DNA of 32,000 nt from an uncultured Alphaproteobacteria bacterium (GTDB lineage: Bacteria > Pseudomonadota > Alphaproteobacteria > Rs-D84), in NCBI GenBank assembly GCA_963931495.1, contig OZ007020.1:720001-752000 (forward strand), written 5' to 3'. A program made the translations under genes and the position numbers. Below the pieces are notes generated by a model, which saw nothing but the letters and a program-made list of their open reading frames with translations, ran no database searches and was not told where the DNA came from. The first letter of the stretch is position 1. Every line of letters starts with the position of its first letter. Shown here piece by piece: positions 3,459-27,619 of the stretch.

Positions 3459-3803
3459 TTATTTTTTCCAAAATGCGAATCCACTGCGACGTTCTGATTT
3501 TTCTTCGCGTTGTTTGCGATCTTCGGCGGCACGCCGACGTTCAGCACGACGTTCTTGGAATCTGCGCGCAGATTCTTCATCACGCTGGATTAATCTTAAT
3601 TCGGTGACAGACAGTTTATCATTACGTACTTCTTCATCAAATTCAACAATATCGTTTTCGTTCAAAAATCTGATGCCCGCAGCCTTTAATGCACTGGAAT
3701 GAACAAAAACATCATCTGTGTTACCGTCTGCATTTGGTGTATCAGGTGTGATAAAACCAAAACATTTTTTACCATTGTACCATTTTACTTTACCTTGACG
3801 CAT
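3459..3803 (-). CDS. Cold-shock domain protein with an Arg/Glu-rich C-terminal tail
   Basis: Start re-picked at MRQGKVKWYNGKKCFGFI (RNP1-like KGFGFI variant), preceded by a GGAAGG Shine-Dalgarno. VFVHSSAL is RNP2-like. The tail is RRFQERRAERRRAAEDRKQREEKSERR. Confidence 0.85.
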   Translation of the reverse strand: MRQGKVKWYNGKKCFGFITPDTPNADGNTDDVFVHSSALKAAGIRFLNENDIVEFDEEVRNDKLSVTELRLIQRDEESARRFQERRAERRRAAEDRKQREEKSERRSGFAFWKK

Positions 3804-3940
3804 AATGTACCTTCCTTTCTTATGCTTGTTATGGTTCCCAAAAAACAGTGAACCTGTATTCATTGTTGCTGATAAGCAAACGTAAAGCAAGTAAAAACGC
3901 CTGCATACAATCGGATTGAAATCACATGATTGTATTTATG

Positions 3941-17750: not shown

Positions 17751-18038
17751 CTATTCTGTTAATGGACATACAGATTCATACACGTATGTGCCAAATTCAT
17801 CTGTATATTCGGTGTTTAATGGTACAAACATCATACAATTCCCGGCGGGGCTTTCATCCAAACAACTGGTGACCGTACCGGCCGTGACATATCCTGTCGG
17901 ACATTCGGATGCAGAATCTGCCAATACGAAAGCATTATCAACCAATCGCATATATCCCGTCGGGCATGATGTTGATGGTTCGTTTGCATTAACTGTAAAC
18001 GGAAATATAAACAGTAATGATAAAAATATTCGTTTCAT
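17751..18038 (-). CDS. Small secreted cysteine-rich protein (CPTGY / GTYV module)
   Basis: Start re-picked at MKRIFLSLLFIFPFTVNA (signal peptide), with a GGGGGA Shine-Dalgarno. Two CPTGY motifs and the C-terminal block CMMFVP...DEFGTYVYESVC are shared with ORF 27570..28103. Confidence 0.65.
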   Translation of the reverse strand: MKRIFLSLLFIFPFTVNANEPSTSCPTGYMRLVDNAFVLADSASECPTGYVTAGTVTSCLDESPAGNCMMFVPLNTEYTDEFGTYVYESVCPLTE

Positions 18039-18055
18039 CTGTTCATCCCCCACAA

Positions 18056-18469
18056 TTACCCGATAATATTATTAAAGAACTTTTCCCAATATACCGAATA
18101 TCCGCACCTTTTCTCGCATTCTTCTGCGCATTCGTCACCAGAGTATGAACCGTTCCAAACCCATTTACTTTCAAAAGGACTTAATACTTTACAGTAGCAG
18201 CTGTTGTTCATATCGCCATTCGTATCAACATTCAAACTTTCTGTTACATCAAACATATACCTTGCGCACGCAGAAATCCCGGTTATAACCAACGAATTGC
18301 CCCCAGATGAACACCGACGCGACCACATATTGTCGCCATCATCAGTATTCAGGATGAATAGGCAGTTATTGGGCCGAAGCACACATTTTACAACGGCGTT
18401 GGCCGGCGCGATGTGGACAATGGCGCATAACGCCCCAATCATTCCAAATCGGATTAAATTATTTTTCAT
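18056..18469 (-). CDS. Secreted cysteine-rich protein (137 aa)
   Basis: Signal peptide MKNNLIRFGMIGALCAIVHIAPANA, with a GGGAG Shine-Dalgarno and many Cys residues. First gene after leader copy L1. Confidence 0.65.
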   Translation of the reverse strand: MKNNLIRFGMIGALCAIVHIAPANAVVKCVLRPNNCLFILNTDDGDNMWSRRCSSGGNSLVITGISACARYMFDVTESLNVDTNGDMNNSCYCKVLSPFESKWVWNGSYSGDECAEECEKRCGYSVYWEKFFNNIIG

Positions 18470-18499
18470 TTTTCTTACTCCCTGTGTTTTTGGTTAAAC

Positions 18500-18720
18500 A
18501 AAAAACCACCAATCTGTTGGTGGTCGGGATGTTAGAAAAATCATATACCTTGATGATCCTGTGGCTTTTAAGGACGCATGCCCTTTGTTGCATGAACCAC
18601 AGCATCCCGACCAGACGTCGGGACACGACACAATATGTGTCATAACGTTAACGATGTGTTTCACACACCGAAGGTATAAGGGATTTTCTAAGTCCCGAAC
18701 CCACAAACCATGCGGATTCA
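18500..18720 (-). promoter_or_regulatory. Structured 5' leader RNA copy L1 ending in an intrinsic terminator (candidate riboswitch/attenuator)
   Basis: Paralogous to 23395-23618 and 26990-27205. GAAA-loop hairpin at 18680-18696 and CATCGTTA at 18649-18656. The proximal arm (18617-18622) and the distal arm (18523-18531) both pair with the middle segment (18603-18611). Terminator CCACC/GGTGG plus T6 (A-run 18500-18505 on plus). Confidence 0.6.
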
Positions 18721-18725
18721 TTTTG

Positions 18726-18755
18726 AATATCACAGTCTTTTTATATTGGTATCAA
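18726..18755 (-). promoter_or_regulatory. Putative sigma70 promoter for leader L1
   Basis: On the minus strand, TTGATA-N17/18-TGATAT/GATATT, preceded by TG (extended -10). Confidence 0.35.
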
Positions 18756-18783: not shown

Positions 18784-19161
18784 ATGAAACATTTAACCGA
18801 TACAGATATTAAAAATATGCTTGGGGATGAATTCATTCCTGATAATAACGATGTGCGGCGCACTGTGCGTGGCGAATTGCACTTGGCGCGTCGTATACCC
18901 AAAACAACACATGTGCCCCAGCATCTGGTATTGGATCTGCATCACAATACCGAAGACCAGGCATGGGATAAAATTATGCGCGTTGCCACATCCGGCGCAC
19001 GCACCGCAACAATCATCACGGGGGCCAGTGGAATATTAAAAATAAAATTTCAACAATGGGCGCATGACAGTATCTTGGCGCCATATATCGTGTCTGTCAC
19101 ACCAATTAATAACGGCAGTTTCGCAGTAAAATTCAAAAAGAAATTAAAATCCGATTTTTAA
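18784..19161 (+). CDS. Smr (small MutS-related) domain protein
   Basis: 125 aa. LVLDLHHNTEDQAW ... TATIITGASGILK ... matches the Smr pattern LDLHG..x..A...G.....IIHGKG.G.L. Confidence 0.75.
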   Translation: MKHLTDTDIKNMLGDEFIPDNNDVRRTVRGELHLARRIPKTTHVPQHLVLDLHHNTEDQAWDKIMRVATSGARTATIITGASGILKIKFQQWAHDSILAPYIVSVTPINNGSFAVKFKKKLKSDF

Positions 19162-20304
19162 TAATATACTGACCGTGTGCGCCATATATTCACTGCGTGC
19201 ATCAATACGGTAATTTATGCCTGCATTAAAATATGGACTGAAAAATGTTACACCAACCGCCCCGTCCAGCATTGTACGATGCGGGGCATCAATCGGGATG
19301 GTATACGAATTTCCACCATTTAAGTTAACATGTACCCCCGGTGTGCCATTGCTGATGACATCATATCCGCCACCAATGTTAATCGCCGGGCGTATAACAA
19401 AATCAGAACCAATAAAATCGTATCCAATGTCTATACCGGCGCCGGCCGTCAGCATGTTGTACCACCATTTATCAAATGACTGTAATACTGAATCAGTATA
19501 TGCATCTGTCATTATCCGCGAATATCGTATACTAATTTGTGGCACAATTGATATGTTGTTGCGCGCCAAGCGAATACCTGTATTAAATTGACCGGCGAAA
19601 AAATTCGTATCGTATGTGCCATTGTCGTTAACTAATGAAATTATTTTTTCAATTGCCCAACTGGTATGCCCAGCATTCAACCCAAAATTTATAAACAGCC
19701 CATTTTGCCCCAGGTATTCCCCAAATAACGTCAAACTGTTACCGATGGCATCAGAATAAACACGTGTATCATGCGTATCTGTCATTGTGCGTGTGTATGC
19801 TGCACCGAACAGTAATCCATCTGTGACAAACATCTTGGCATTAATTGTAACCCCAGTATTACGTGTTTTGAACGCAGAATTCATCCCAGAATCATATGTG
19901 GCAAACGAACCGAACACATGGCCGTCCAGCACCAGACGACGCGTATCATCACAACTGATATGGCCGGCAACACACTCATCACGTCGTGCCAGCAACGGCA
20001 TGCCAATGACAGAAAAAGATTGATCCAAATGATTATTTATTTCAAACAGCGCAACTGATGTACTGTTGAACCCCAGCGTTGATATGGCATCTGAAAATTC
20101 TGCGACATCCGTTGTTCGTGTTCCATGTACGTATGACGCGACATCTGAACTGGGGCTGATATAGCCTGAATTGCCCAACCATGCATTGGCAACATCGTCC
20201 AGATACTTGGCATCGCCAAATAATCCGCCAAACGAATAATTTGCCGGCGCGCCCCATGCGGCACCACAAAATATCAACATGCAAAATCGTAAAATATTTT
20301 TCAT
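19144..20304 (-). CDS. Outer-membrane beta-barrel protein (autotransporter-type translocator-like)
   Basis: Start re-picked at MKNILRFCMLIFCGAAWGA (signal peptide). Alternating beta-strand pattern and a C-terminal aromatic residue (..LLKIGF). Overlaps the smr 3' end by 18 nt (convergent). Confidence 0.6.
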   Translation of the reverse strand: MKNILRFCMLIFCGAAWGAPANYSFGGLFGDAKYLDDVANAWLGNSGYISPSSDVASYVHGTRTTDVAEFSDAISTLGFNSTSVALFEINNHLDQSFSVIGMPLLARRDECVAGHISCDDTRRLVLDGHVFGSFATYDSGMNSAFKTRNTGVTINAKMFVTDGLLFGAAYTRTMTDTHDTRVYSDAIGNSLTLFGEYLGQNGLFINFGLNAGHTSWAIEKIISLVNDNGTYDTNFFAGQFNTGIRLARNNISIVPQISIRYSRIMTDAYTDSVLQSFDKWWYNMLTAGAGIDIGYDFIGSDFVIRPAINIGGGYDVISNGTPGVHVNLNGGNSYTIPIDAPHRTMLDGAVGVTFFSPYFNAGINYRIDARSEYMAHTVSILLKIGF

Positions 20305-20369
20305 GACTCGCCCTGTTTTTTGTTTATAATATGTGCCACAAGGATAAATTTTAACAGGAACCATTTACT

Positions 20370-21960: not shown

Positions 21961-22037
21961 GCGCCCATGGCTCAATTGGATAGAGCATCTGACTACGGAT
22001 CAGAAGGTTGAGGGTTCGAATCCTTCTGGGCGCGCCA
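21961..22037 (+). tRNA. tRNA-Arg (anticodon ACG), CCA encoded
   Basis: Hand-folded: acceptor GCGCCCA/TGGGCGC, D arm GCTC/GAGC, anticodon arm TCTGA-CTACGGA-TCAGA, T arm GAGGG-TTCGAAT-CCTTC, then G-CCA. Confidence 0.92.
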
Positions 22038-22062
22038 GGAATTTAACCGCCAGAAACGGCGG
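22028..22062 (+). repeat. attL-like direct repeat (3' end of tRNA-Arg plus its terminator stem)
   Basis: The 35-nt GGGCGCGCCAGGAATTTAACCGCCAGAAACGGCGG is identical to 23279-23313. Confidence 0.7.
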
Positions 22063-22072
22063 TTTAATTTTT
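22045..22072 (+). terminator. Terminator after tRNA-Arg (duplicated at 23296-23325)
   Basis: Stem AACCGCC / GGCGGTT with a 6-nt loop, followed by a T-rich run. Confidence 0.6.
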
Positions 22073-22268
22073 GTGCAAGCCCCAGGATTTGAACCCGAAC
22101 AGAGGGGGCGACAACAAGTAGATTTACCAAACGACAGTGCCGGCAAATCGTCACGATTGCCACGCCACCGACAAAGGCAAAATTGACGAATATATGATGA
22201 ACTGGGCGCGGTATGCAAAATAGATTGCTATTTGGTCTTGTTTGTTGTTAGATTTTATACAGGTGTCC

Positions 22269-22503: not shown

Positions 22504-23133
22504 TTATATTTTACAAGTAATAAATCCTAGATTTCTGCCGTCTGTAAAAACTTCGTTGAAACGATCTATTTTCTTGATTTGGTTTAATACTGGGTTAGCC
22601 CCAAGTTCGCGTATCATGCGAAATATCATATTATGTATTTTATGGCATGGCATTTGATGTCTTGAGCATATCAGCAATGACCCGTTATGCGAAAAACGAT
22701 TACGATATTTACGAATTGTATCTATTTCGCGTGAAATTTTTAATAAAGAAACATGGGCTTTCCGATGACTAAATATCTCTTGCAGAGCAGTTGGATATTT
22801 GTCCCAAATAGTTTCGCAATTTTGTGACATAAACAATTTGCTCCAAAAACCGAATGTTAAGCTATCTATTAATTTATTTCTGTCTGTAATATCTTTTTCG
22901 TCATTTAATTTGTCATCTGCACGAACAAAGTCAAAAATCCAATTTTCACCAATATGACGCGATAAAACAGCGTCTATTTTATTGCGTAGAACTATTTCAA
23001 ACTGACTTAAACTTGGATACATGCTTTCGCATAAGCGCACATTAAAAAAATATAACTGATGTGTGTGTGGTTTGTCAGGCGCACCATATTTAGACAAACG
23101 TTGTTCAGACATAAATGGTATTATTGTATCCAT
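22504..23133 (-). CDS. Abi_2 (AbiD/AbiF-like) abortive-infection family protein, HEPN-type
   Basis: 209 aa. YFFNVRLCESMYPSLSQFEIVLRNKI, LTFGFWSKLF and IRKYRNRFSHNGSL (Rx4H HEPN motif) match my recollection of the Abi_2 family. Confidence 0.7.
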   Translation of the reverse strand: MDTIIPFMSEQRLSKYGAPDKPHTHQLYFFNVRLCESMYPSLSQFEIVLRNKIDAVLSRHIGENWIFDFVRADDKLNDEKDITDRNKLIDSLTFGFWSKLFMSQNCETIWDKYPTALQEIFSHRKAHVSLLKISREIDTIRKYRNRFSHNGSLLICSRHQMPCHKIHNMIFRMIRELGANPVLNQIKKIDRFNEVFTDGRNLGFITCKI

Positions 23134-23278: not shown

Positions 23279-23313
23279 GGGCGCGCCAGGAATTTAACCG
23301 CCAGAAACGGCGG
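23279..23313 (+). repeat. attR-like direct repeat
   Basis: Identical 35-nt copy of 22028-22062. Confidence 0.7.
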
Positions 23314-23394
23314 GTTATTTTTTGTTCGTGCACATCATTTCAACATCTTTAATCAAATAAAGTTCTTTTTTTTCAATAAGATTATATACGAACC

Positions 23395-23618
23395 ATCCGG
23401 GATGCTGGTTCGGGGCCGTAGAAAGCCCAGTTTATCCGGTGCAAAAGCATCGTTATACATTTGTGGATATTTCGGTGTCTTTTGCACCGTGTTGTCCCCG
23501 ACCTGGGTCGGGGGGCCGTTCGCAATACAACAGGACCATCGGTCCAAAGGCAACGGGAATCAATGATAAACTGATTTTTCTAACCCCCCGACCACCATGC
23601 GCTGACATGGTGTTTTTT
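23395..23618 (+). promoter_or_regulatory. Structured 5' leader RNA copy L2 ending in an intrinsic terminator (candidate riboswitch/attenuator)
   Basis: 5' hairpin GAACCA/TGGTTC. GAAA-loop hairpin at 23413-23428. CATCGTTA at 23448-23455. 10-bp hairpin 23438-23447/23479-23488. Proximal arm CCCCGAC (23496-23502), middle GTCGGGGGG (23507-23515), distal CCCCCCGAC (23584-23592). Terminator CACCATG/CATGGTG plus T6 (23593-23618). Confidence 0.6.
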
Positions 23619-23643
23619 ACATAAATCTGTACGGGGGGCAAAT

Positions 23644-26953: not shown

Positions 26954-26982
26954 TTGTTTTTAATATTCACGCGGTATGTAAT
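26954..26982 (+). promoter_or_regulatory. Putative sigma70 promoter for leader L3
   Basis: TTGTTT (26954-26959) -N17- TGTAAT (26977-26982). Confidence 0.3.
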
Positions 26983-26989
26983 CCAATTG

Positions 26990-27205
26990 TTAATGGGTGT
27001 TCCATTAATGGGGCGTGGAAACCTCTGCACATGCGTCGGGATACATACCTGTGGCGCGCAACATGCGCCCATTTTAGCGTTGTGTTACGACGATAAAAAA
27101 CTCCTGGCCTTATTTGGTCAGGAGGGTTGTAGAATATCAAATACACAACGCAATTCATGTGATTGTTTCCAACCTCCTGACCACCATAAAAACTGGTGGT
27201 TTTTT
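26990..27205 (+). promoter_or_regulatory. Structured 5' leader RNA copy L3 ending in an intrinsic terminator (candidate riboswitch/attenuator)
   Basis: 5' hairpin ATGG/CCAT. GAAA-loop hairpin at 27010-27025. Proximal arm CTCCTGGCC (27101-27109), middle GGTCAGGAGG (27116-27125), distal CCTCCTGACC (27173-27182). Terminator ACCACC/GGTGGT plus a T-run (27180-27205). Confidence 0.55.
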
Positions 27206-27232
27206 CGTTGTAAAAAAAGTGGGAGTTGGACT

Positions 27233-27619
27233 ATGAAACATAGTATATTTTCTGTTATTGGCGTGGTATCAGTAATTATGTTGCCGTACACGGCATTTGC
27301 CGTCAGTGGTAGCGGTGGCAATATTGATTGGGACGGGGTTGACCATTGCATATCTGGGTGCATAAATTGTTCAGTATACGAAACGGCGTCGTGTTGCATT
27401 GTGTGCAACGATAGCAGTGCGGGCGGCGGTGGTGGAAGCGGATATGCATGCACGTCATATGCCCAATGCCCCAGTATATCCGAACGAATCCTGTATACAG
27501 ACATTGGTTCGGCGGCATCAGTTGGTGATGCAGGGATGGCATCATCAAACAATATATGCTTTGACATAAATGGCATTCAATACTATAAAAAATCGGCTGT
27601 GTCATGCCGTACGGCATGA
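27233..27619 (+). CDS. Secreted cysteine-rich protein (128 aa as written; probably the N-terminal part of a frameshifted longer gene)
   Basis: Start re-picked at MKHSIFSVIGVVSVIMLPYTAFA (signal peptide), with a GGGAG Shine-Dalgarno. CISGCINC..CCIVCND CxxC motifs. The in-frame upstream part of track ORF 26954..27619 covers the leader and terminator and is rejected. Confidence 0.6.
   Translation: MKHSIFSVIGVVSVIMLPYTAFAVSGSGGNIDWDGVDHCISGCINCSVYETASCCIVCNDSSAGGGGGSGYACTSYAQCPSISERILYTDIGSAASVGDAGMASSNNICFDINGIQYYKKSAVSCRTA

Follow-up and report, generated by a model that had tools for sequence, protein, structure and literature searches.

We analysed a 32,000-nucleotide (nt) stretch of DNA, hereafter the window, from an uncultured Alphaproteobacteria bacterium of the lineage Rs-D84 (assembly GCA_963931495.1, contig OZ007020.1, positions 720,001 to 752,000). 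The minus strand at 18719-18499 encodes a real structured RNA leader of ~220 bases, termed L1, which, judged by comparative sequence analysis, could shut off both transcription and translation of two genes for secreted cysteine-rich proteins. L1 probably represents a cis-acting RNA switch in the 5' leader of this two-gene operon that is OFF by default and is turned ON by a pseudoknot and a long-range helix, B:C. Comparison across copies of the element supports the position of the promoter, every helix, the mutual exclusion of B:C and a local hairpin termed A:B, as well as the pseudoknot and the base pairing between the leader and the ribosome-binding region; we infer the direction of switching and what sets it.

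Rival helices and a pseudoknot in the L1 leader

The 231-nt L1 RNA folds better than shuffled sequences (z = -8.0), with A:B present in the minimum-energy fold. This folding check had been suggested with the original prediction, an earlier reading of the same DNA that proposed a terminator, an antiterminator (B:C), and an anti-antiterminator (A:B). All motifs named there were found on the minus strand where it had placed them, and both rival helices covary, linked through alignment columns 150 (A), 177 (B), and 268 (C). The attenuator model held as far as it went but lacked hairpin P1, the P2-loop pseudoknot, the three-way junction, the lock on the ribosome-binding site, and the link to a known RNA family. 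Two further copies, L2 (~23385-23620) and L3 (~26975-27205), are located on the plus strand of the window (folding z = -4.4 and -4.9). The 20-nt 3' motif TTTCYAACNNCCYGACCACC occurs three times in the window compared to 0.1 expected occurrences, and a profile search of the window yielded no fourth copy. Copies of the element belong to two types, type I (L1 and L2) and type II (L3), which can occur in one genome.

Covariation was determined on an alignment (A2) of 44 sequences comprising type I, Rickettsia, Microvirga, and other copies. In the ON-type fold (P1, P2, P3, B:C, the junction hairpins Hx and Hy, and the pseudoknot), 89.3% of the cells were paired compared to 79.9% in shuffles, both sides had changed in 36 of 52 pairs, and none of 500 shuffles was as good. 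When the partners were slid by 1-3 columns, ON-type pairing fell to 35-55%. The OFF-type fold, in which A:B and the terminator replace B:C and the pseudoknot, had 88.4% paired cells (79.5% in shuffles) and changes on both sides in 32 of 50 pairs, again with 0 of 500 shuffles as good.

The core of L1 is a three-way junction that is closed by B:C and contains Hx (18602-18559), Hy (18557-18540), and a single-stranded linker, directly 3' of which lies strand C, CAUCCCGACC. The long-range partner CAUCCCGAC (18531-18523) had been assigned to a 9-bp helix; the helix is real but comprises 10 bp (18612-18603 with 18531-18522). Pairing in B:C reaches 95%, three of its positions show compensatory changes, and all seven pairs of Hx covary. 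The predicted sequestor hairpin, UGUCCCGAC-GUCUG-GUCGGGAUG at 18625-18603 with CCCGAC-GUCUG-GUCGGG inside, was also confirmed. In A:B, 88.5% of the cells are paired, with CG in 16 and UA in 14 cases at the column pair 150:177. The columns of A, B, and C change jointly from U-A-U to C-G-C and the P2 stem changes along with them, so that one co-varying block comprises both strands of P2 together with strands A, B, and C. That A:B and B:C are mutually exclusive and yet both maintained is the signature of a switch.

Based on covariation, the predicted pseudoknot between the P2 loop and the linker is the best-supported long-range contact. The original prediction had described P2 (GGGACUUAGAAAAUCCC, 18696-18680) as a hairpin with a GAAA loop; the hairpin is present, but instead of a tetraloop it has a 4-bp stem and a 9-nt loop, which carries site 1, UUAGAAAA, at 18691-18684. 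Site 1 and the linker (18539-18532) form a covarying pseudoknot of 7-8 bp with ~100% standard pairs. At least eight covarying versions occur over the lineages, including type II copies and copies found independently of the search pattern: UUAGAAAA/UUUUCUAA, UGGAAAC/GUUUCCA, UAAGAAAA/UUUUCUUA, UGAGAAC/GUUCUCA, UGAUGAC/GUCAUCA, UUCAAAG/CUUUGAA, UUCAAAAC/GUUUUGAA, and CUCGAAAAC/GUUUCGAG. The covariation of P1 pairs holds in type II copies as well. A further motif of the earlier reading, CATCGTTA at 18656-18649, turned out to be the 3' strand of hairpin P3 plus a linker.

Two observations concern the same structures. Type I and Rickettsia copies combine a GNRA-type P1 loop (GGGA or GCAA) with a UAUACAAC/AAAG internal loop in Hx, and type II copies combine a GUGUU P1 loop with a shortened Hx that ends in a AAUAUCAAAUA loop; this joint difference may reflect a tetraloop-receptor-like tertiary contact. 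In one strain assembly (locus L122, ~1420-1430, orthologous to 18545-18535), a 6-nt deletion (UGAUUU) in an otherwise identical leader takes out the 3' arm of Hy along with some of the pseudoknot strand; it may be either a natural loss-of-switch variant or an assembly error.

The open reading frame (ORF) 18494..18733, which spans the element, had been dismissed as noncoding, and we likewise give virtually no credence to a 79-amino-acid (aa) protein encoded there. The frame is open throughout L1, and some frame is open over at least 90% of the element in 25 of 61 copies compared to ~7 in shuffles. However, the conserved 5' and 3' motifs are not linked in frame, their distance modulo 3 being 0, 1, or 2 in 21, 25, and 15 copies, respectively. 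The open frames differ among copies, and stops are depleted on both strands (16 of 61 copies for the reverse strand). Substitutions relative to the ortholog display no third-position bias (13/7/13), and no gene is called over this ORF in public assemblies. A conserved short leader ORF, as expected for a leader-peptide attenuator, did not occur in L1 either, as there was no conserved frame and no called gene. Stop depletion on both strands of the element can mislead ORF callers; at L3, a spurious 221-aa ORF (26954-27619) is fused to the real gene.

Termination, translation, and the proposed switch

The predicted -35 box of the leader promoter, TTGATA at 18755-18750, was recovered by a consensus scan, whereas the -10 region is better described as an extended TGnGATATT element, its hexamer lying at 18731-18726 behind a spacer of 18 nt. 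Among 51 full-length copies, 33 have a TATAAT/TATACT box (five or more of six positions matching) that ends 6-7 nt before the first base of P1. A TTG-type -35 box is located ~17 nt upstream of that -10 box in the copies, and the boxes of L1 are in the same register. The conserved -10 register before P1 indicates that the element begins at the transcription start. Along with public gene calls and a terminator after the second gene, this register supports the earlier proposal of a promoter-driven minus-strand leader in front of a two-gene cysteine-rich operon.

The terminator stem ACCACC...GGUGGU followed by U6 at 18524-18500, also part of that proposal, was picked up by a terminator scan; the stem is 94.5% paired and displays compensatory ACCGCC/GGCGGU variants. 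As had been predicted, the partner strand overlaps the terminator: the 10-bp helix shares 4 nt with its stem, since GACC at 18525-18522 forms the first four bases of the terminator 5' arm and is also used by B:C. B:C and the full terminator therefore cannot coexist. The OFF fold is the minimum-energy fold of L1 and L3, and forcing B:C raised the energy by 12-14 kcal/mol when the pseudoknot was left out of the count. In L2, both forced folds had about the same energy, and the unconstrained fold contained no separate terminator hairpin.

The 3' strand of the leader is, in addition, complementary to the translation-initiation region of the first gene (site 2), with a duplex energy of -13.6 kcal/mol in L1. 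In the minimum-energy fold of the read-through RNA extending into this gene (-99.0 kcal/mol), 18540-18526 pairs with 18484-18467 around the terminator. Across 57 copies, the 3' strand paired with its own ribosome-binding region at -10.2 kcal/mol compared to -6.6 kcal/mol for controls, and 50 of the 57 were better (p ~1e-18). The controls were 272 unrelated genes of the same loci; ribosome-binding regions of other copies were unsuitable since they share the feature. Type I strands preferred type I ribosome-binding regions (p = 0.004) and type II strands those of type II (p = 0.0004), and CAGGAG occurred in 11 of 18 type II ribosome-binding regions compared to none of 27 of type I. One copy (L116) has no terminator hairpin, and its Shine-Dalgarno (SD) sequence is located directly opposite strand C. 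As judged from these pairings, the ribosome-binding region is a predicted mimic of the P2 and B sequences, which would provide the 3' strand with three alternative partners.

We propose that transcription starts at ~18720 and that the nascent RNA would successively fold P1, P2, P3/P4, and the local A:B hairpin before the 3' strand (linker UUUUCUAA and strand C CAUCCCGACC) emerges. In the OFF state, which is the default and lowest-energy state, A:B would stay in place, GACC-ACC... would fold as the terminator, and most transcripts would end at U6. In RNAs that read through, the 3' strand would cover the SD sequence and the AUG (18484-18467) and block ribosomes. In the ON state, the pre-formed P2 loop would capture the linker as a pseudoknot, and strand C would displace A from B to form the 10-bp helix that closes the three-way junction. 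The terminator stem would thereby lose 4 nt and the ribosome-binding site would be freed.

Copies of the element, the operon, and its surroundings

About 90 distinct homologous copies were identified in public data. A search of species-representative genomes for the 3' motif yielded 119 loci, ~70 of which are chance matches by our own estimate; the real loci cluster in gut metagenome-assembled genomes (MAGs) of 'uncultured Alphaproteobacteria' and Candidatus Enterousia. A profile built from the motif copies added ~10 copies that do not fit the search pattern, and a 5'-anchored metagenome scan added 26 loci. In the 5'-anchored copies, the 3' strand still reads UUUUUCUAAC-UUCCCGACC-(A/G)CC, indicating that its conservation is not an artefact of the search pattern. 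Several MAGs hold at least 3-4 copies, and two copies (L091 and L101) are located on a single contig that is syntenic with the window. Nearly all genes downstream of gut copies encode signal-peptide proteins that contain 9-28 cysteines and vary greatly in sequence; GT2/GT8 glycosyltransferases are among the few exceptions.

L1 might instead be a free-standing gene for a trans-acting small RNA (sRNA) with its own terminator, next to an independently expressed operon. The element has both a promoter and a terminator of its own, and its relative sRNA-Xcc1 (see below) is annotated and treated as a trans-acting sRNA (PMC2996969, PMC12189769). However, only ~30 nt separate the U-tract from the start codon of the first gene, which leaves no room for a promoter. 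Nearly all gut copies are located 20-45 nt upstream of an SD sequence and an ATG, a spacing to the start codon that at least 50 copies keep, and the ribosome-binding region co-varies with the 3' strand of the leader. We therefore regard a free-standing sRNA gene as highly unlikely and retain the cis-acting switch.

The features of the leader and the operon are listed in Table 1.

Table 1. Features of the L1 leader and the downstream operon (window coordinates).
Feature	Position	Strand	Details
Sigma-70-type promoter	18726..18755	-	-35 TTGATA, extended -10; predicted start ~18720-18719; consensus scan and register in copies
P1 hairpin	18697..18719	-	GAAUCCGCA 18719-18711 with UGUGGGUUC 18705-18697; 8 of 9 pairs changed on both sides
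P2 hairpin	18680..18696	-	GGGA 18696-18693 with UCCC 18683-18680; stem covaries, AU 26 vs GC 5 at one pair
P3 hairpin	18652..18670	-	CGGUGUGU with ACACAUCG; 5 of 6 pairs changed on both sides
P4 hairpin	18627..18641	-	GACACA-UAU-UGUGUC; variable central region; RNAfold; compensatory A-U to G-C change in ortholog L091
A:B hairpin (anti-antiterminator)	18603..18623	-	A UCCCGAC 18623-18617; B GGUCGGGAUG 18612-18603
Three-way-junction core (sRNA-Xcc1-like domain)	18522..18612	-	closed by the 10-bp B:C helix
Linker / pseudoknot strand	18532..18539	-	UUUUCUAA; pairs with P2 loop (site 1) or start-codon region (site 2)
ACCA tail	18518..18521	-	directly 3' of B:C; U18613 at -1, G18612 at +1
Intrinsic terminator	18499..18525	-	GACCACCAA 18525-18517 with UUGGUGGUU 18512-18504, then U6 (18505-18500)
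Site 2, translation-initiation region	18467..18484	-	CAGGGAGUAAGAAAAAUG; SD 18482-18478, AUG 18469-18467; complementary to 18540-18526
Regulated operon	17751..18469	-	ORFs, public gene calls, terminator scan

The first gene of the operon (18469-18056, minus strand) encodes a 137-aa protein with a signal peptide and 10 cysteines, and the second (18038-17751, minus strand) a cysteine-rich 95-aa protein; the scan placed a strong terminator 3' of the second gene at 17731-17710. In public assemblies, these two genes and a divergent 125-aa gene are called, with nothing called within the 315-nt interval. Searches against Pfam and NCBIfam assigned the cysteine-rich proteins to no family, and the only homologs found formed five close, unnamed clusters. 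The part of the first gene encoding the mature protein (18050-18400, minus strand; 350 nt) is 79-89% identical between strains of the same species, while the locus is otherwise 97-100% identical, and the protein is only 72% identical between those strains. This comparison marks the first cysteine-rich protein as a local hypervariable spot and suggests diversifying selection or recombination. A special constraint on the near-identical leader beside a diverging protein was considered and rejected, because identity is 97-100% over the whole locus and the divergence is confined to the mature part of the first gene.

The divergent gene, which the original prediction had called smr, is kept in the syntenic MAG and in related strains; its product is a sub-threshold Smr match (18.1 bits, cutoff 25.7). 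The -35 boxes of the leader promoter and of the plus-strand smr promoter do overlap as described, by 2 bp (18750-18751). The smr promoter itself is a consensus match only, with six promoter-like sites in the region compared to 6.2 in shuffles. Next to the smr-like gene, a gene for an autotransporter beta-domain protein (19144-20364, minus strand; Pfam E = 5e-21) represents a further secreted or surface gene of the region and is not accompanied by a leader copy. The surroundings of L1 consist of housekeeping genes (murJ, an rlpA-like gene, htpX, tdk, and groEL). Just upstream of L2, a 47-nt direct repeat (22028-22074 and 23279-23325, 96% identical) extends from the last bases of a tRNA gene (21961-22034) through a terminator-like hairpin. 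The 1.25-kb insert between the repeats contains an ORF (22504-23133, minus strand) with a sub-threshold Abi_2 match (23.7 bits, cutoff 25.6), and by its arrangement looks like a small island integrated at the tRNA gene.

Relation to sRNA-Xcc1 and to phage immunity leaders

At the Rfam gathering score, the whole window contained two tRNAs only, and permissive scans of L1 returned only noise. The family link was opened by one supposed chance match, locus L014, that was located inside a true copy of sRNA-Xcc1 (RF02221), an 88-nt RNA from integron cassettes of Xanthomonas and from phages that has been mapped experimentally (PMC2996969). The RF02221 gathering score of 53 bits was not reached by the copies in the window: L1 gave no hit at E <= 10, and L3 scored 31.8 bits (E = 6e-4), below the threshold. 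The model aligned over its full length (1-87) to the 3' domains of gut and alphaproteobacterial copies with 24.7-39.2 bits, compared to 59-79 bits for true members in L014 and on viral contigs. We constructed an independent covariance model, R1, from 29 gut and alphaproteobacterial 3' domains, excluding L1-L3, type II copies, and all sRNA-Xcc1 members. R1 scored L1 (18613-18516) at 79.5 bits (E = 8e-20), L2 at 66 bits, and L3 at 40 bits, and it detected all six true sRNA-Xcc1 members with 39-47 bits (E ~1e-9 to 1e-11). Repeats of the Xylella phage Xfas53 scored 26-29 bits, and two sites upstream of antirepressor genes in an Stx2 phage scored 21 bits. By these model scores, the 3' domain of L1 is a distant homolog of sRNA-Xcc1 that falls below the Rfam threshold, and the putative leader as a whole is an unrecognised, longer relative.

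Like L1-L3, sRNA-Xcc1 has a three-way junction (closing helix, two hairpins, a 6-8-nt linker, and the closing strand) followed by ACC, its first junction hairpin carrying an AUACAA/GAA-type internal loop and its second being short. In contrast, L1 is extended by 110 nt on its 5' side (P1-P4 and A), its ACC tail is fused to a U-tract terminator, and it precedes chromosomal genes for secreted cysteine-rich proteins. The Rfam family does not include the site 1 hairpin, A:B, or the downstream site 2. All three were also found in true members: these carry an upstream P2-like hairpin with a loop matching the linker, an A:B hairpin, and, beside the downstream SD sequence, the loop sequence again. Because of these elements, the Rfam family represents only the 3' core of a longer leader. 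In the ant leader of the Stx2 phage (NC_049924.1, ~3650-3900), the corresponding sequences are CUCGAAAAC, GUUUCGAG, and CUCGAAAAAA. A terminator after the first hairpin was often observed in true members (L014 132-297 and 1278-1451; L126, L129, L132, and L135; L162 1380-1650). In the Xylella phage Xfas53 (L163, 1456-2489), an Xcc1-like core occurs in 380-nt tandem repeats annotated as 'repeat-encoded' anti-repressor ORFs. In a published Xylella annotation, five such copies are placed ~385 nt apart, and a tandem run of sRNA-Xcc1 - isrK - C4 is listed as well (PMC12189769). True members precede the gene for a SymE toxin and, where they occur on viral contigs or in annotated phages, antirepressor genes (Rha, BRO-N, and Ant); in Xanthomonas cassettes, sRNA-Xcc1 occurs upstream of symE (bioRxiv 10.1101/2025.06.18.660453).

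These downstream genes bear on whether L1 is a riboswitch for a metabolite, an ion, or a second messenger, in which the junction and the pseudoknot form an aptamer and a ligand stabilises B:C to turn the operon ON. A complex, conserved, pseudoknotted fold with a conserved unpaired internal loop in Hx would suit such a sensor, as would the use of one core on different expression platforms, mostly a terminator but SD pairing in L116. Multi-copy leaders before secreted or surface genes and glycosyltransferases, as found here, recall the regulons of cyclic di-GMP riboswitches. However, the downstream functions (cysteine-rich secreted proteins, SymE toxin, Ant/Rha/BRO-N, an XRE regulator, and a thymidylate-kinase-like protein) are unrelated and share no apparent metabolite logic. 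Moreover, the central region is highly variable, and the types differ mainly in their base-pairing addresses, with a ribosome-binding region that co-varies as predicted for RNA-RNA recognition. No known riboswitch aptamer family matched L1 or L3 at gathering or permissive thresholds. A riboswitch is thus an unlikely explanation.

The 3' end of the junction allows for another alternative, in which an RNA-binding protein, or RNase P acting at U18613/G18612, makes the decision and the leader is mainly a processing or stability element. R-C-C follows the B:C helix in all 87 distinct copies, the fourth base being A in 76%; position -1 is U in 58%, and +1 is G. On this pattern, the end of the B:C helix looks like the acceptor end of a tRNA or like an RNase P site: its R-C-C-A tail, its G(+1), and its frequent U(-1) match determinants recognised by bacterial RNase P (PMC4919922). 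The mapped 5' end of the 88-nt sRNA-Xcc1 (PMC2996969) is the first nucleotide of the Rfam model, a position that corresponds to the start of B in the alignment. For C4, the precursor serves as a substrate of RNase P according to Hartmann 1995, as cited in PMC4919922. However, no candidate regulator gene is linked to the copies, the ACCA is usually buried in the terminator stem in gut copies, and processing alone does not account for the covarying competition between A:B, B:C, and the ribosome-binding site. A decision by a protein or by processing is accordingly quite improbable. Relations of the ACCA/GGUGG motifs to tmRNA, tRNA-like elements, or T-boxes were considered but received no model support, and UUCUAAC was rejected as an attC-like site because it does not fit the RYYYAAC core.

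For the cis-acting switch, we tentatively consider competition between RNAs as a possible trigger, in which leader RNAs of matching type, released by termination or processing, would bind in trans to site 1 or site 2, modelled on the leaders of phage P4 (seqA-CI-seqC), phage P1 (a1b1-C4-a2b2), and Gifsy-1 IsrK. We rank this trigger above a small-molecule ligand and above a decision by a protein or RNase P because of the covariation of three sites, the presence of two orthogonal types in one genome, the multi-copy state, and the phage relatives. A more speculative and rather doubtful extension is that a phage-immunity-type RNA circuit has been domesticated on the chromosome of gut Alphaproteobacteria as a multi-locus regulon that uses two or more orthogonal base-pairing addresses (types I and II). 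If so, leader-derived RNAs would act in trans on all loci with the same address, resulting in feedback or mutually exclusive expression of hypervariable secreted cysteine-rich proteins, and the annotated sRNA-Xcc1 would be no more than the core processed out of a cis-regulatory leader guarding genes for toxins and antirepressors. The same device would then operate at dozens of chromosomal loci in uncultured gut Alphaproteobacteria, gating fast-evolving secreted cysteine-rich proteins that are likely host- or competitor-facing factors. For sRNA-Xcc1, whose annotations are widespread in Xanthomonas, Xylella, Stx phages, and integron cassettes but come with no mechanistic explanation, the three-site model (decoy loop, antisense linker, and ribosome-binding-site target) would provide a testable mechanism and, in terms of architecture, a tie to the RNA immunity systems of P4 and P1. 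The ant leader of the Stx2 phage would be a tractable system in E. coli.

Several points weigh against the proposed switch and its likeness to immunity leaders. The support throughout consists of sequence comparison and energy models, and the pseudoknot is outside the energy model, so that the energy gap between the ON and OFF folds is approximate only. A nested 5' GGGA:UCCC(C) pairing fits the covariation equally well as the local P2, which renders the exact OFF fold ambiguous. A ligand or protein sensor would likewise be consistent with the conserved Hx internal loop (UAUACAAC/AAAG) and with so complex a fold. Roughly half of the copies were gathered with a pattern that fixes the 3' strand, a bias that the 5'-anchored and profile-derived copies reduce but do not remove. 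The Rfam models C4, isrK, and c4-a1b1 (RF01695, RF01394, and RF03163) gave no hit at E <= 10 in L1, L3, or eight loci, and R1 does not detect the C4 RNA of P4. Given that no model matched in either direction, the likeness to immunity leaders is architectural, and homology is not demonstrated. A 21.9-bit isrK-like match is located just upstream of one phage sRNA-Xcc1 copy (L132).

In phages P4 and P1, the core RNA is cut from the leader of the operon that it controls and acts by premature termination or by a translation block (PMC4825925, PMC3632133, PMC8198154); the processed CI RNA of P4 pairs with seqA upstream and seqC downstream, leading to premature termination (PMC4825925). As in L1, the C4/CI core is a three-way junction, of 87 nt by the Rfam C4 model on P4, with a linker and an aCC tail. 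In P4, an upstream hairpin (CGGG-CGUGAGAA-CCCG) presents a loop (GUGAGAA) complementary to the CI linker UUCUCAC, which is the topology of the P2 loop and linker in L1. One gut variant (L077b), GGGG-CGUGAGAA-CCUC with GUUCUCAAC, nearly has the hairpin and linker sequence of P4. P4 and P1 share with L1 a second complementary site downstream at the regulated gene, and L1 and the phage members, like P4, combine upstream and downstream sites complementary to the antisense segment of the core in one transcript. In contrast to P4/P1, the L1 family has only one loop/linker pair (b-type), no a-type pair having been found in it. L1 is also located outside a prophage and does not control an antirepressor; unlike L1, the phage relatives occupy a prophage immunity region ahead of antirepressor or replication genes. 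To our knowledge, neither a competitor hairpin such as A:B nor an overlap of the closing helix with an intrinsic terminator is a feature of C4/CI.

The IsrK leader of Gifsy-1 yields a short sRNA and a read-through mRNA. IsrK is a structural homolog of P4 seqA, and its read-through RNA is translationally locked by long-range pairing and unlocked by alternative structures (PMC4825925). L1 resembles this leader in having its own intrinsic terminator and a read-through RNA predicted to be silenced by long-range pairing. In L1, however, the terminator follows the C4-like domain rather than the site 1 hairpin, and there is no small upstream ORF for translational coupling. With classical attenuators and the platforms of ON-riboswitches, L1 shares three mutually exclusive helices and a U-tract terminator. 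It differs from them in having neither a leader peptide nor a known aptamer; instead, a predicted pseudoknot would nucleate the antiterminator, and a second lock would act on the ribosome-binding site.

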